Source: a phage
Sequence record: PZ386948.1
DNA length: 64,000 nt
Direction: 5' to 3' (one strand)
The notes beneath the pieces were generated by a model. That model had not been told where the DNA came from. It searched no databases and was given only the letters and a program-made list of their open reading frames with translations. This document shows, piece after piece, positions 10,282 through 35,690 of this stretch (positions within the stretch are counted from its first letter, which is position 1; each line of letters begins with the position of its first letter). Made by a program: the position numbers and the translations under genes.

Positions 10282-10751
10282 TTTAAACTCTTTCTAAGCT
10301 GCTTCTTAAATGAAGCTATTAATTGTGTTTTGGTGTCAGATTCATTATATTCAAATCCTCTTTGAAGCATCTCGGCCATCATTTCCTCTTTTCCTAAACG
10401 AGAAAATTCCTTTGTTTTATCTCCAACAAAGTTAGGGTGAATATTATTTTGGGTGTAATCGGATTTTAAATAAGTAAGTAAATTTTCTAACCATTCAAGA
10501 TAATCAACACCTTGTCCCTTTAAGCCAGAACGATTAAATTTGTGCTTCATTTGACCTTCTGCGGCATTACAGAGATTACAAAGCAATCCACGTACCTTTC
10601 CTGCTTTTGGTCCATTTAATTCATGGTCATGATCAAGATGATTAGCTTGAACATCAGGATTTAGTTCTCGTTGGCAAATTAAGCATTTACCGTTTTGTGC
10701 ATCATAAAATTTCTGTTTTTCTTCTTTATATAATTTGCCAGTCAATAACAT
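10278..10751 (-). CDS. 49: Endonuclease VII (Holliday junction resolvase)
   Basis: 157 aa; MLLTGKLYKEEKQKFYDAQNGKCLICQREL...HLDHDHEL matches T4 gp49 as I recall it. Confidence 0.9.
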   Translation of the reverse strand: MLLTGKLYKEEKQKFYDAQNGKCLICQRELNPDVQANHLDHDHELNGPKAGKVRGLLCNLCNAAEGQMKHKFNRSGLKGQGVDYLEWLENLLTYLKSDYTQNNIHPNFVGDKTKEFSRLGKEEMMAEMLQRGFEYNESDTKTQLIASFKKQLRKSLK

Positions 10752-28117: not shown

Positions 28118-28331
28118 ATTTGACTTCCTCACCAGTACATAAATCGTATTCAACTAAACGAATAGGTTCATGAATGCCATATCCTTGAACAGAAATTTCT
28201 GTCGTAGGATAAATTCCATTAATATCACCCATGTTCCATGCTTCGTTAAATTGCTGTTCGCCTGAATTACTAAACCACTCGGCGAAAGCATTTAGCACAT
28301 CTTCAGAACCTTCAATAATTATCTTTGCCAT
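28110..28331 (-). CDS. Hypothetical acidic protein
   Basis: 73-aa ORF; start overlaps the GrcA-like stop. Confidence 0.45.
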   Translation of the reverse strand: MAKIIIEGSEDVLNAFAEWFSNSGEQQFNEAWNMGDINGIYPTTEISVQGYGIHEPIRLVEYDLCTGEEVKYD

Positions 28332-28693
28332 TACAAACTCTCGGTGAAGGTACGAGCGATAACGTCGCGCTGCTGTTCCGGAGTCAGAGAGTTAAAGCGA
28401 ACTGCATAACCGGATACACGGATGGTCAGCTGCGGATATTTTTCCGGATGCTTAACTGCATCTTCCAGAGTTTCACGACGCAGAACGTTAACGTTCAGGT
28501 GTTGACCACCTTCAATTTTAACTGTAGGCTGTTGCTCAATTTCAATTTCACGGGCATGCAAACCATAGAAAATTTCTGGGTCTACAAAAGAGTCCTCTTT
28601 AAAGGTTTTAGAGACAATAATTCGTGCTTGAATACCATCTTCAAAATAAATAGTACCTTTATGTGTGCCTTCAAGAATTTGATATGCTTTCAT
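28331..28693 (-). CDS. Autonomous glycyl-radical cofactor (GrcA/YfiD-like; T4 Y06I-type)
   Basis: 120 aa; C-terminus ...[33 protein letters not shown] carries the glycyl-radical RVSGY motif; 3' half is GC-rich. Confidence 0.85.
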
Positions 28694-28699
28694 ATAACC

Positions 28700-29029
28700 T
28701 CAATTAGAAAATAAATTTATCCAAGATTGTTCTTTAATTAAAAATGGCTCAGAATCATATGCCATTAAACTCTGTGTGATTAGTCCTTTAAAAGGCCCAT
28801 CAATAAATTCCATGGTAAAATATGGAATTTTATTCATTAGCCGTGCATTAGGAGCCGTGCACAAAACTCTGCATCCTTTGAATACGCCTTTTTGTAATTT
28901 GTATTGCTTGGGATAAAATTCGCTCAAAATGTTATTTTTTGCCAAAATTTCAAAATGATTCACCAATTTATTTTTAATAGTTTTTGGCGAAAAATAAAGA
29001 TATTCGAAAAGCTGAGTGTCTGTCATCAT
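28700..29029 (-). CDS. Hypothetical protein
   Basis: ATG at 29029 overlapping the upstream stop (ATGATGA). Confidence 0.45.
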   Translation of the reverse strand: MMTDTQLFEYLYFSPKTIKNKLVNHFEILAKNNILSEFYPKQYKLQKGVFKGCRVLCTAPNARLMNKIPYFTMEFIDGPFKGLITQSLMAYDSEPFLIKEQSWINLFSN

Positions 29030-29565
29030 TGCATTCCGATTACGAAAAACTGTGGACGAGTAATACCACCAATGCAACATTTAATATTACAGCAGCAGTG
29101 TACAGTGTCAATATGGACACTATAAATCTTATCCATATCAGGAGATTTGACAGGCTCATCAATTATATACAAAATTCGCGAAAGCGATAAACCTCTGAAC
29201 TTGCTTCCTTTATTACCAATAAAACTGCGCACAGAATCAGTAAATAAACGAAAACGTATATCATCATTAGAATAACGCGAAAATTCCTTTTTAATATTAT
29301 CTGCGGAAATTTTAGCGTAAGCTGAAGTATTAGAAAGAACAATAACTGTTCCACCGTCATACAACCAATTAGCGGCAAAATTAGTTACTGCAGTTGATTT
29401 ACCAGATTGACGCCCACCATCTAGTCGAAGTGTACAATACTGTTTAAGTAAGTCTTCAAATGGCGGGATATATTCGTTTTTACAAATTTCTTCTACTCTA
29501 GCATCAGAATGGTGTGTAAAAGCATTCATCAGGGATAGATAAGGACCAGTTAAAAATGTTCTCAT
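29026..29565 (-). CDS. P-loop NTPase
   Basis: Walker A GGRQSGKST and Walker B ILYIIDEP; start codon uncertain (29565 preferred). Confidence 0.5.
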   Translation of the reverse strand: MRTFLTGPYLSLMNAFTHHSDARVEEICKNEYIPPFEDLLKQYCTLRLDGGRQSGKSTAVTNFAANWLYDGGTVIVLSNTSAYAKISADNIKKEFSRYSNDDIRFRLFTDSVRSFIGNKGSKFRGLSLSRILYIIDEPVKSPDMDKIYSVHIDTVHCCCNIKCCIGGITRPQFFVIGMQ

Positions 29566-29710
29566 TTTGTTCTCTCTAGGTTTGGGCCATTCCATGGCGC
29601 ATGAATTGTCCATTTCTGTATTTACCCATTACCGCACTTGGGCTCGACCTTATTACAGGTTGGCGGGAATCCCTCACAGAATCATGAGGTCCAGGTTATT
29701 CCCATGTTAT

Positions 29711-30127
29711 TTAAATGTAAATATTTTTGCCGTAATACTTATACCAGTGTGGCTTCATTAAAATTTTTTCATCGAGTCGTTGTTGACTCAACTTAATAGC
29801 TGATTTGCATGGATTATAATCATTTTTCCATTCTACTGGAATATCGCTGATGTCAGGAACTTCAGTATCTTTTATACTGAACCCGCGTTTTAAGCATTCC
29901 GTTATAATGTCCGATTGACGCTTTCGCAAAAATTCTAACTTATCGTAAAAGAAAGTAACATGACCAGAACCTAAAATAAATTTAGAAGATATTTTAAAAT
30001 CTTTAACGCGCTTACCGTTTGCCACATGCTTACGAACTATACCAAAAACACGCGGCAATTCACGGTATTCTGCGATTAAATGTTGATCAGCAAGTTCAGA
30101 TACTAAAGTCAAATTAATACGAGTCAT
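29711..30127 (-). CDS. denV: Endonuclease V (pyrimidine-dimer DNA glycosylase)
   Basis: 138 aa; [39 protein letters not shown]..., roughly 75% identical to my recollection of T4 DenV. Confidence 0.9.
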
Positions 30128-30150
30128 TTTATCCCTCCAAGTAACTGTGA

Positions 30151-30183
30151 ATATACTATCACAATTCTAGGAGAAAGTAAACA
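30151..30183 (-). promoter_or_regulatory. T4-type early promoter upstream of denV
   Basis: GTTTAC (30177-30182), 17-bp spacer, A/T-rich -10. Confidence 0.5.
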
Positions 30184-30186
30184 ACT

Positions 30187-30717
<531 letters not shown>

Positions 30718-34388: not shown

Positions 34389-34862
34389 TTATTTGATTTG
34401 TTTAGCAGACCAAATGCGATCTTTAATAATTTTTTGGATGTCTTCAACATACACAAGAGAGTGAGCATGTGGATTATCTTTGAAACTATAAGCACGAGCT
34501 AGTTTTTGGCCTTCAGTTTTGATTACTAAAAGCTCTTTAAGGATAGCTTCATATTTGGAGATAATTCCTTTAACAATATTTTTTTCTTGTGCAGCTTTAG
34601 GATCTGCTTTAGGAGCAGGTTTACCCGAAGCCTTTGCAAAAGCAGCGCCAGTAGCAACTAAACTTTTCCAGGCCATACTAACTGCATTTCCCGTAAATCC
34701 TTCCGCTTTCATGTCGCGTGCGAACTGGAATCGCGATTCATCAGAAGCATCTTTATAAGAATATTTACCCGCTGCAATGGCTGCTTTTGCGACAGCTTGA
34801 ATTTCGGTGCTAGATGCTTCATTTAACACCGCTTCATTTAAAAATTGAGTATATGATTTCAT
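34389..34862 (-). CDS. Internal-protein-like protein with capsid-targeting sequence
   Basis: 157 aa; N-terminus MKSYTQFLNE|A resembles the T4 IP targeting sequence MKTYQEF... with an LxE cleavage motif. Confidence 0.6.
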   Translation of the reverse strand: MKSYTQFLNEAVLNEASSTEIQAVAKAAIAAGKYSYKDASDESRFQFARDMKAEGFTGNAVSMAWKSLVATGAAFAKASGKPAPKADPKAAQEKNIVKGIISKYEAILKELLVIKTEGQKLARAYSFKDNPHAHSLVYVEDIQKIIKDRIWSAKQIK

Positions 34863-34898
34863 CTTATTTCCTGTTTTAATTCGTGGTTTTAATATACT

Positions 34899-34906
34899 TA
34901 TTTATA
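34899..34906 (-). promoter_or_regulatory. Late promoter (TATAAATA) for the IP-like gene
   Basis: Exact TATAAATA on the minus strand about 37 bp upstream of the ATG. Confidence 0.55.
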
Positions 34907-34907
34907 C

Positions 34908-34935
34908 TAAAAAGCCCCAACCTTTCGGTCGGGGC
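34908..34935 (-). terminator. Rho-independent terminator, copy 2 of the identical 31-bp element
   Basis: Same hairpin as 34353-34380 with U-run. Confidence 0.7.
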
Positions 34936-34941
34936 TAAGCC

Positions 34942-35235
34942 TTGCGGCAACCTTGTCGGGGTTCCACCTGCTAAGGCAAGTGTTTGTACGAAACGCCGGG
35001 ATTCGAACCCGGTTATTAAGCAGTTGACGCTACTCAATATTTTTAAAAGGCCATATCTCGACCATATCCGAACGTTCCGTCAAAAACGCTACTCGGCTTA
35101 CGGCAAAGATATTTCCTCGAATCGATAATTCGGTGCGCCGTTTCTGCTGTGATGTAAGAGGGCATCAATAAACGCAAAGATTATTAACGCAATTCCTTAC
35201 TCAGGGAACATCAGTCCGACGACTTACCGGTAGCG
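34942..35235 (-). ncRNA. Structured GC-rich non-coding region, candidate stable small RNAs (T4 rnaC/rnaD-like position)
   Basis: No ORF; tRNA-like T-arm CCGGGTTCGAATCCCGG on the minus strand; sits between tRNA-Arg and the terminator as species 1/2 RNAs do in T4; boundaries approximate. Confidence 0.35.
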
Positions 35236-35614: not shown

Positions 35615-35690
35615 TGGTCGAGGCAGTAGGGATCGAACCTACGACCTAGGACTTAGAAGGTCCTTGCTCTTCCTTCTGAGCTATGCCCCG
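35615..35690 (-). tRNA. tRNA-Arg (anticodon UCU)
   Basis: Manual cloverleaf: acceptor CGGGGCA/TGCCTCG, anticodon loop CTTCTAA, T-arm GTAGG-TTCGATC-CCTAC, 3' ACCA. Confidence 0.8.

Follow-up and report, generated by a model that had tools for sequence, protein, structure and literature searches.

A minus-strand copy of a conserved structured RNA family of phages in the gap between denV and vs.8 of a Tequatrovirus

The sequence record PZ386948.1 holds a phage DNA of 64,000 nucleotides (hereafter, the window), in which a gap of 145 bp separates denV, the gene for endonuclease V, from vs.8, an open reading frame (ORF) with the motifs of a P-loop ATPase. A first reading of the letters, made without any database search (the sequence-only reading), remarked that this gap is GC-rich and holds nested inverted repeats, and proposed that it could be either a structured RNA leader or a regulatory DNA element. 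The locus raises the question of what kind of object is encoded in the gap, and what role it could have next to an ATPase gene. As judged from comparative sequence analysis, the gap encodes a minus-strand copy of a conserved family of structured RNAs of phages.

A structured RNA with a near-invariant core

Both features that had called attention to the gap are real. Its G+C content is 46.2%, versus 34.7% for the window, which corresponds to the 98.9th percentile among windows of 145 nt, and the structured part (29584-29703) reaches 50%. The outer repeat, GGGAAT/ATTCCC, joins 29665-29670 with 29698-29703 (6/6 matches), and the inner repeat, CCTCA/TGAGG, which is nested in it, joins 29672-29676 with 29685-29689. 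These repeats are the helices P1 (outer) and P1a (inner) of the structured RNA. When the presumed leader was folded, its folding energy proved unremarkable on both strands (minimum free energy (MFE) z = +0.48 for the sense and -0.05 for the antisense strand), while conservation and covariation do support a structure. As the MFE of a single sequence is uninformative here, comparative data were used to define the structure, and it is on conservation and covariation, not on folding energy, that the repeats exceed chance.

A covariance model comprising P1, a second helix (Px) and a hairpin (P4) was built from 55 sequences and run over all the DNA collected. In the window, cmsearch gives a sole match, on the minus strand at 29615-29705, with 96.6 bits and an E value of ~1e-24. 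With this model, 83 copies of the element are recognized among the collected sequences; 80 matches have E < 1e-4, and chance matches of the DNA patterns score below 17 bits. Pair counts were taken on 62 distinct sequences, in which standard pairs occupy 94.2% of the cells, versus 73.7% in shuffles (0 of 500 shuffles reach 94.2%), with a covariation score of 0.593, versus 0.189 in the shuffles. In a control in which the 3′ partner was slid by 1-3 columns, only 27-55% of the cells were paired. All eight pairs, five modelled in P1 and three in Px, change on both sides, and 95% of the cells are paired in P1 and 98% in P4. A lack of conservation of the repeats in related phages, which had been named as a result that would speak against a functional element, was not found; conservation accompanied by covariation extends well beyond those relatives.

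The covariation also reveals the strand. At one position of Px, 21 distinct sequences hold a G-U pair; read from the opposite strand, it would become A-C. Such strand-specific G-U pairs indicate that the RNA is read from the minus strand, which is the sense strand of the flanking genes, and they disfavour the proposal of a regulatory DNA element. The parts of the RNA in the window are as follows:

29584-29703, minus strand: whole structured RNA, with the core and a T4-specific 3′ domain (T4-like form), found by cmsearch and blastn; the covariance model covers 29615-29705 of it
29698-29703, minus strand: 5′ arm of P1, GGGAAU, which pairs with 29665-29670, with changes on both sides
29672-29689, minus strand: P1a, an optional hairpin in the P1 loop, CCUCA-UGAUUCUG-UGAGG, recognized from the sequence
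29665-29670, minus strand: 3′ arm of P1, AUUCCC, supported by covariation
29662-29664, minus strand: 5′ arm of Px, GCC, which abuts P1 and pairs with GGU at 29624-29626
29647-29660, minus strand: P4 hairpin, ACCU-GUAAUA-AGGU, with an almost invariant stem
29627-29646, minus strand: junction J, CGAGCCCAAGUGCGGUAAUG, near-invariant
29624-29626, minus strand: 3′ arm of Px, GGU, supported by covariation
29614-29619, minus strand: candidate 3′ strand of helix P2, ACAGAA (tentative)
29601-29613, minus strand: P5 hairpin, AUGGA-CAA-UUCAU (tentative, limited covariation)
29586-29598, minus strand: P6 hairpin, GCCAU-GGA-AUGGC, within the GYGCCANGGAAYGGCCC block (no covariation)

P1 has 5-6 bp, and its sequence differs widely between phages: GGGAAU/AUUCCC in the window, AAAGG/CCUUU in a set of T4-like phages designated group B, and AAAGC/GCUUU, AAAGA/UCUUU, GGGG/CCCC (rV5), GAGGG/CCCUC (EcoPhCCP1) or GAAUGU/ACAUUC (PsgM04F) in others, with A as the first nucleotide in many lineages. 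P1a is represented elsewhere by CCUUA/UAAGG (L077), CACAU/AUGUG (rV5), CUAUA/UAUAG (L049) and CUACG/CGUAG (L040), and is missing from the PsgM04F and EcoPhCCP1 types. Px has 3-4 bp, its 3′ strand coming just after GGUAA, and encloses the P4 hairpin and the 20-nt junction J. Its variants include CUGG/CCAG (Melville), GCG/CGU (EcoPhCCP1), ACU/AGU and ACC/GGU (tRNA-array type), GGC/GCU (L040) and CCA/UGG (L041). Two early guesses at the pairing, CCGC/GCGG and a D-arm-like GCCC/GGGU, are contradicted by Melville (CUGG/CCAG) and EcoPhCCP1 (GCG/CGY), whose variants place the partner of the 3′ GGG in the strand immediately following P1.

Contrary to these helices, the hairpin and junction enclosed by Px form a core of ~35 nt that is almost invariant. 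The only change in the P4 stem is from A-U to G-C, in four sequences. The P4 loop obeys the rule G-U-R-R-N-A (variants GUAAAA, GUAACA, GUAGCA, GUAAGA and GUGAAA), and the 20 nt of J, which may hold a short helix of 2-3 bp, have the consensus CGAGCCnAAGYGCGGUAAUG. Most copies were fetched with DNA patterns that fix parts of P4 and J, while five were reached independently of them, three by way of the Vs.8 protein and two, the second copies of L029 and L042, by way of the model. These five keep the core with small changes, namely a GUGAAA loop, GCGUGG, AGCGCAA-CGCGG and AGUCCGCGACGG. Across the copies compared, the core is strongly but not absolutely conserved.

For many lineages, complementarity exists between the 5′ side of the P1 loop and a strand located a few nt 3′ of Px, and the corresponding helix, P2, would make the RNA an H-type pseudoknot. 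Outside the lineage of the window, P2 has 5-7 bp (CGCCGA/UCGGUG, CACAC/GUGUG, GCCAGC/GCUGGU, CUCCGG/CCGGAG and GUGAGGG/CCCUUAC), and a further pair is CGGA/UCCG against CGGG/UCCG. The best loop-tail helix has a mean of 4.2 with the own tail, versus 3.1 with cross-family or shuffled tails, and a helix of at least 4 bp is found in 66% and 32%, respectively. On this comparison, P2 is likely to be real in several lineages. In the window, two partners can be drawn for ACAGAA: the CUG at 29692-29694 (3 bp), which is kept in all T4-type copies, and the UUCUGU at 29676-29681 in the P1a loop (6 bp), which is not kept in T4.

T4-like copies carry an additional 3′ domain formed by P5 and P6. P5 has the form AUGGA-N3-UYCAU, with AUGGA/UCCAU in Melville and W15-2 and UGG/CCA in L010. 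The GYGCCANGGAAYGGCCC block, where P6 lies, is kept in all the Tequatro-, Mosig-, Dhaka-, Jiaoda- and Gelderland-type copies and ends 18-25 nt before the AUG of vs.8. RNAalifold instead prefers J and the P4 3′ arm as partners of this block, through 12 bp of which 4-5 are G-U, with one-sided U/C changes only. The same complementarity of 12 bp is visible in the window at 29585-29649, between J plus the P4 3′ arm and the 3′ block GYGCCANGGAAYGGCC. There, the alternative and the core folds are about equally stable (-27.0 and -26.6 kcal/mol, respectively), and the RNA may be bistable, with a two-state arrangement, as far as these predicted energies go. The alternative pairing lacks compensatory changes: it is weakened in CIP9 without compensation, and the divergent 3′ domains of L035, L042 and L051 lack it. 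No terminator-like site was found on the minus strand in or near the element, nor any promoter-like site on the minus strand of 29566-29710, and the Shine-Dalgarno (SD) sequence of vs.8 is unpaired in both candidate folds.

Group-B copies (L004, L007, L010 and others) show a linker, UUUACAU, just 3′ of Px, followed 17 nt later by AAUUAU. The hexamers of T4 early promoters are GTTTAC and a TATAAT-like -10, and the group-B arrangement GTTTAC-17 nt-AATTAT resembles this consensus. A similar linker, UUUAAUU, occurs in the non-T4 copies L036 and L041, which indicates that it is probably a feature of the RNA; judging from its letters, the group-B linker could conceivably double as a promoter of vs.8.

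Gene order and distribution among phages

The window is a Tequatrovirus, and over positions 28300-30700 it is 100% identical to phages CM8, DalCa and Pinarejo, among others. The minus strand carries every gene of this stretch, in the transcription order e, denV, the 145-bp gap, the P-loop ORF (vs.8), vs.7 and the GrcA-like vs.6. The features around the element are:

30187-30681, minus strand: e, lysozyme gene
29711-30127, minus strand: denV, endonuclease V (Pfam Pyr_excise, E = 1.4e-13; same annotation in the 100%-identical phages)
29566-29710: gap of 145 bp between denV and vs.8
29571-29576 and 29563-29565, minus strand: SD-like GAGAGA and start codon ATG of vs.8, from whose M1 the homologues align
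29026-29565, minus strand: vs.8 (ORF 64.0 of T4), 179 amino acids (aa), 97% identical to T4 ORF 64.0

The stop codon of denV (TAA, 29711-29713) lies 7 nt ahead of P1. Since all the genes are on the minus strand, the gap is located downstream of denV, as the 5′ leader of the ATPase gene. The sequence-only reading had taken the plus strand as the sense strand, so its gene order came out reversed, with the element upstream of denV instead of after it and before the P-loop ORF. In the window (29711-30681), denV directly follows e, without ipII or ipIII between them, the order in T4 being e, ipIII, ipII, denV. vs.6 (28331-28693) codes for a GrcA/YfiD-like protein, an autonomous glycyl-radical cofactor (Pfam Gly_radical, E = 2.5e-18).

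Where vs.8 starts has been annotated in several ways. The T4 record of 1986 gives five alternative starts for ORF 64.0, and the longest product, of 219 aa, spans the element. This frame ends at a TAG in the window, leaving a 33-aa ORF (29576-29677), and another frame of the window gives a 195-aa ORF, often reported by gene callers in versions of 194-196 aa. Public records overlay the element with doubtful ORFs (29566-29613 in the window, 1446-1556 in L026, 727-855 in L098), among them these "extended" versions of Vs.8 and, in PsgM04F and KaAlpha, small antisense ORFs. The conserved blocks of T4, the window and the group-B T4-like phages are separated by indels of 8, 1 and ~40 nt: an 8-nt difference in length separates T4 from the window, a 1-nt indel is seen against group B, and some copies hold an insert of ~40 nt. 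The blocks fall in different frames in T4, the window and group B. In addition, 18 homologues of Vs.8, with identities down to 40%, align from M1 (MRTFLT or MKTFLT) and not before. These non-triplet indels, together with a homology that starts at M1, indicate that the gap is non-coding and that vs.8 starts at 29565.

A blastn search with the gap finds the element in ~1035 phage records, and vs.8 is present in 1010. The initial collection comprised 31 Straboviridae loci; in all 31, vs.8 follows the element as the nearest or next-nearest gene, and in most of them vs.7 comes next. Karamvirus, Winklervirus and Kanagawavirus, which were reached by tblastn with Vs.8 alone, also have the element directly 5′ of vs.8 (64-72 bits), and the link between both holds in all 34 sampled Straboviridae loci, down to 37% identity of Vs.8. 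The gene 5′ of the element differs, being denV, Ip4 or another internal-protein (IP) gene, or others.

Outside Straboviridae, no vs.8 homologue was found near the element in the collected loci. In rV5-like phages (Vequintavirus), which share with the T4-like phages a 43-nt stretch covering P4 and J (29623-29667, minus strand) at 95% identity, the element occupies an unannotated intergenic region just upstream of a cluster of transfer RNA (tRNA) genes, with an annotated sigma-70 promoter between it and the next ORF. Pseudomonas phage PsgM04F and Shigella phage SF1-1 (146-151 kb) carry it in a tRNA array, with tRNA-Thr on one side and tRNA-Gly on the other, and in the 44-kb coliphage EcoPhCCP1 it immediately follows the endolysin gene. 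It also appears in uncultivated viral contigs (38-75 kb) and in a 371-kb jumbo phage. At ten loci, tRNA genes are found on the same strand within ~1 kb. No protein family is common to the neighbourhoods of the element across phage groups, and its orientation is always that of the flanking genes. An origin as host-derived sequence was rejected on the lack of any match in 5,426 complete E. coli genomes. A degenerate pattern, applied to 185,579 genomes representative of bacterial and archaeal species, matched only twice, and neither match scores with the model, so that the bacterial genomes searched hold no convincing copy and none is apparent outside phages.

Several loci show rearrangements around the element. 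In Klebsiella phage W15-2 (L029, 489-2201), the order is an IP gene, a first copy (980-1087), an ipII-like gene (1162-1464), a second copy (1520-1612) and vs.8, the second copy being chimeric, with a broken Px. In L014 (10270-10441), an IP gene is inserted between the element and vs.8, and L042 (5087-5305) holds two copies in tandem, the second of them with its junction shortened. In its arrangement, the element resembles a junction at which the hypervariable IP locus recombines.

The non-T4 loci have peculiarities of their own. In the ~150-kb Pseudomonas and Shigella phages (L026, 1372-1866; L033, 1870-2367; L038, ~10630-10720), the element sits in a tRNA-free gap of ~500 nt within the tRNA array, bracketed by a 7-bp stem, GUUGUGA/UCACAAC, and long AAGAGCACUG/CAGUGYUCUU hairpins; in view of these flanking repeats, the tRNA-array copy may belong to a larger structured RNA. 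A degenerate tRNA-like unit with an intact T-arm follows the element in L038. In EcoPhCCP1 (L032, 2040-2160), a strong promoter-like site, TTGACA-17 nt-GATACT, is placed at the 3′ edge of the element, and a strong intrinsic terminator (CCCGGC...GCCGGG and then T9) lies ~60 nt beyond it. By their sequence, these two look like an unannotated small transcription unit.

Module or leader: the role of the RNA and its alternatives

With regard to the role of this RNA, the reading that we find, on balance, slightly more probable than not is that of an autonomous structured RNA module, which would serve as the leader of vs.8 in T-even phages. The location of copies in tRNA arrays, the promoter between the element and the next ORF in rV5 and the lack of a shared protein neighbour point to a module rather than to a leader devoted to one gene. 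The original proposal of a structured RNA leader thus stands as far as the structured RNA is concerned, but only partly as a leader, because the core occurs elsewhere without an ORF behind it.

In such a module, the variable helices P1, Px and P2 would hold the P4-J core in a defined shape, and this invariant core would act as a surface for sequence-specific recognition, or as an active surface, for a partner conserved across hosts. That even the stem of P4 hardly varies speaks for base-specific contacts. In most phage groups, the RNA would be produced in or next to tRNA operons and probably cut out by the RNases of the host that process tRNAs, a placement which suggests a highly expressed and stable RNA. 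In T-even phages, the module would have become fixed between the upstream gene and vs.8, gaining a 3′ extension (P5 and P6) that ends ~20 nt before the ribosome-binding site of vs.8. There, it would be co-transcribed with denV and vs.8, forming the 5′ leader of the vs.8 message. This position would link the RNA to the Vs.8 ATPase in a physical and possibly also in a functional sense, and the RNA may influence Vs.8 or cooperate with it.

Several observations weigh against this reading. The pair counts come from an alignment that had been fitted to the model and is thus biased in its favour, and retrieval with fixed patterns accounts for part of the invariance of the core. Recent transfer among coliphages could have contributed to the 43-nt identity that links T4-like with rV5-like phages. 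The MFE fold does not contain P1, and P2 is at chance level in the T4-type lineage of the window itself (3 bp, CUG/CAG). The element of T4-like phages is always a leader, and there a purely cis role fits equally well. Finally, a multi-omics study of T4 names only RNAC and RNAD as small RNAs of this phage (PMC9697503).

No described RNA was found to correspond to the element. Against Rfam 15 (4227 models), no match overlaps it at E ≤ 10, either in a scan of 1.4 kb or with the 156-nt element alone, and in the window plus 13 diverse loci only tRNAs reach the Rfam gathering score. The element is not a tRNA itself, as ARAGORN finds six tRNAs in the window, at 35.6-36.9 kb, and none at the element, and there is no match to RF00005. 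Full-text searches of the literature, which included strings of the core sequence, gave no description of it, an anonymous entry being possible among the 10,006 candidate viral RNAs catalogued by Fremin et al. (2023, PMC10690425).

The closest RNAs in kind, without homology, are the orphan phage RNAs found near tRNA genes: GOLLD, ROOL, RNAC and RNAD. GOLLD and ROOL are large orphan structured RNAs of phages and prophages, of 580-800 nt. Like them, the element is a non-coding phage RNA, often beside tRNA genes, defined by covariation and without a known biochemical function. Unlike them, it has only ~80-135 nt, shows no match in sequence or structure (their Rfam models find nothing in the window or in the 13 diverse loci), is present in virulent coliphages that include T4, and serves as an mRNA leader in T-even phages. 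RNAC and RNAD are small T4 RNAs from the tRNA region, and relatives of the element also sit in tRNA arrays; however, the locus is a different one, ~6 kb away in the window, where neither the core nor the model has a second match. More GC-rich windows of 145 nt occur at 34581-35101, just downstream of tRNA-Arg (35615-35690), with no Rfam match, in what we take to be, probably, the RNAC/RNAD region of T4. A relation to RNAC was discarded, as the RNAC probe given in PMC9697503 does not resemble the element.

Among the alternatives, the one that survives best, which we consider unlikely but worth serious attention, is that the RNA is purely a cis-acting leader, in which the binding of a ligand or protein, possibly Vs.8, sets the translation of vs.8 or the stability of its message. 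It would be a riboswitch-like element or an autoregulatory operator, and copies elsewhere would regulate whatever lies downstream. This explanation gains from the position of the element, always directly 5′ of vs.8 in Straboviridae, even at 37% protein identity, and from the fixed distance (18-25 nt) at which the 3′ domain ends before the AUG. The 12-bp complementarity between the 3′ domain and J, with folds of nearly equal energy, looks like a two-state switch, and an invariant junction within covarying helices is typical of ligand pockets. In fact, the arrangement of covarying P1 and Px around a near-invariant J is that of a riboswitch aptamer. Nevertheless, a terminator is lacking, the SD is not sequestered in either fold, and the core found in tRNA arrays, or separated by a promoter from the next ORF, has nothing to regulate. 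The alternative pairing, moreover, is uncompensated, being weakened in CIP9 and absent from 3′ domains of the L035, L042 and L051 types. A classical riboswitch is disfavoured by the free SD, the missing terminator and the copies located inside tRNA arrays and upstream of promoters.

The translational operators of T4, such as the pseudoknot of gene 32, are gene-specific and bound by the product of their own gene. The element is similar to them as a pseudoknotted RNA directly 5′ of an early or middle T4 gene, but its core is common to phages without vs.8, and also occurs without a downstream ORF.

A bolder extension of the module reading, which we hold to be doubtful, would make the element the T-even copy of an undescribed but widespread class of phage ribo-element that is active in its own right (a new self-cleaving ribozyme, or a decoy or tRNA mimic), and which T-even phages would have coupled to Vs.8 as a two-component module of RNA and ATPase. 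As a decoy or tRNA mimic, it could neutralize a host defence that targets RNA or capture a host factor.

It is still less probable, in our opinion, that the element represents a new class of self-cleaving ribozyme or a processing signal that cuts polycistronic transcripts, separating denV from vs.8 in T4-like phages and helping to mature the transcripts of tRNA operons elsewhere. An RNA of ~80-110 nt with a pseudoknot, a near-invariant core, variable helices, a distribution restricted to phages and varied contexts has a profile like that of the twister, pistol, hatchet and hepatitis delta virus (HDV)-like ribozymes. The helix order is that of the HDV-like topology, a nested pseudoknot with P1, P2, inner hairpin, P1′, P4 domain and P2′; this order is shown only where P2 and P1a exist, P2 being at chance in the lineage of the window. 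Theta ribozymes, which belong to the HDV-like type, are associated with tRNA clusters, and the occurrence of the element in phages and beside tRNA genes recalls them. On the other hand, no ribozyme family of Rfam matches even at E ≤ 10, and the pattern of conservation is the reverse of that of HDV-like ribozymes: the P4 domain is the invariant part, while the inner hairpin, the equivalent of P3, is dispensable. In HDV-like ribozymes, a short P3 whose loop forms P1.1 is obligatory, and it is P4 that can vary or be missing. There is no conserved C between the 3′ strands of Px and P2 (the P4-P2 C of HDV-like ribozymes), and the first position is not G in many lineages, where P1 begins with A. An HDV-like ribozyme was rejected on these grounds: its topology is similar, but there is no HDV-type match in Rfam and the inner hairpin and the catalytic C do not agree.

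A DNA-level element, be it a recombination junction of IP cassettes, a promoter or a protein-binding site, with the RNA structure as an incidental feature, appears very improbable. The copies that flank an ipII-like gene in W15-2, one of them chimeric, the varying gene 5′ of the element (denV, Ip4 and others) and the resemblance of the group-B linker to an early promoter would fit it. However, covariation that preserves pairing, with strand-specific G-U pairs, is not expected of a DNA site, the orientation always follows the flanking genes, and the copy of the window has no promoter-like site. Recombination at a conserved sequence would be a by-product of its conservation, not its explanation. 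A comparable DNA cassette is known in T4-type phages, the mobile regulatory PeSL, said to have been described by Arbiol et al. in 2010 as an early promoter plus a simple stem-loop. Like PeSL, the element is conserved, does not code for protein and borders on variable genes in T4-type genomes, and in one phage it flanks an IP cassette; in contrast, it has several covarying helices and occurs in non-T4 phages as well. A PeSL cassette was discarded on the multiple helices and the lack of a promoter-like site in 29566-29710.

That the region is coding, either for an N-terminal extension of Vs.8 (219, 203 or 190 aa in T4, 195 aa here) or for the 33-aa peptide, is scarcely credible, since the alternative starts of the old T4 record and the longer ORFs of gene callers face an unconserved frame, protein conservation that begins exactly at M1, compensatory substitutions in the helices and the finding of the same sequence inside tRNA arrays.

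Vs.8 and the meaning of the RNA for T4-type phages

The ORF that follows the element agrees well with its first description as a small stand-alone P-loop ATPase. Its Walker A motif, DGGRQSGK[ST] (DGGRQSGKST in the window), is invariant in the 18 homologues, and in the Walker B motif (ILYIIDEP in the window) I134, I135, E137 and P138 are invariant, D136 being present in at least 90%. An AlphaFold model (pLDDT 81, pTM 0.82) predicts a single alpha/beta RecA-like domain of alternating strands and helices, as expected for such a protein. With Walker A as GxxxxGK[ST], Walker B as hhhhDE and a RecA-like beta-alpha-beta core, Vs.8 has the features of ASCE P-loop NTPases. It belongs to phrog_1488, of unknown function (E = 1e-79); Pfam gives only sub-threshold matches (AAA_14, AAA_30 and Terminase_6N), and a sequence search of the PDB gives no close relative.

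Foldseek matches of the model are weak (E ≥ 5e-4) and spread over SLFN11, SF1/SF2 helicases, RecD, KaiC, F1-ATPase and phage packaging ATPases, with probabilities of 0.9-1.0 to the ATPase domains of helicases, terminases and KaiC. The description of its motif as terminase-like is therefore acceptable only in the sense of a generic ASCE/RecA fold: the match to Terminase_6N has 14.2 bits (cut-off 22), and others are equally weak. A large terminase was discarded because, besides this sub-threshold match, the protein has 179 aa, one domain and no C-terminal nuclease domain; it also lacks the second RecA domain of helicases. Sequence homologues are limited to T4-type phages of enterobacteria, and small ASCE/RecA-like phage ATPases share its Walker motifs and single alpha/beta domain, the relatives in fold being uncharacterized proteins of 140-180 aa in Proteus, Vibrio, Aeromonas, Acinetobacter and jumbo phages. 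As predicted, Vs.8 is a generic single-domain RecA-like ATPase. The label "RegB endoribonuclease" that GenBank places on vs.8 and vs.7 appears to be unsupported, because the Pfam and PHROG scans gave no match to a RegB family for either of them.

Few genomes have been studied as thoroughly as that of T4, but the element is unannotated there. GenBank treats it as an N-terminal extension of vs.8, covers it with spurious antisense ORFs or leaves it blank. The annotation is corrected here, with the start of vs.8 at 29565, and the RNA family, which is present in T4 itself, had apparently not been described before. A core of ~35 nt that is kept nearly letter for letter across T4-like, rV5-like, tRNA-array, 44-kb and jumbo phages points to strong selection on an RNA function. 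If this function proved to be catalysis, the binding of a ligand or a decoy against host defence, the element would be a new class of RNA in a genetically tractable model. It also offers the first functional lead for Vs.8, an ATPase conserved in ~1000 sequenced phages.

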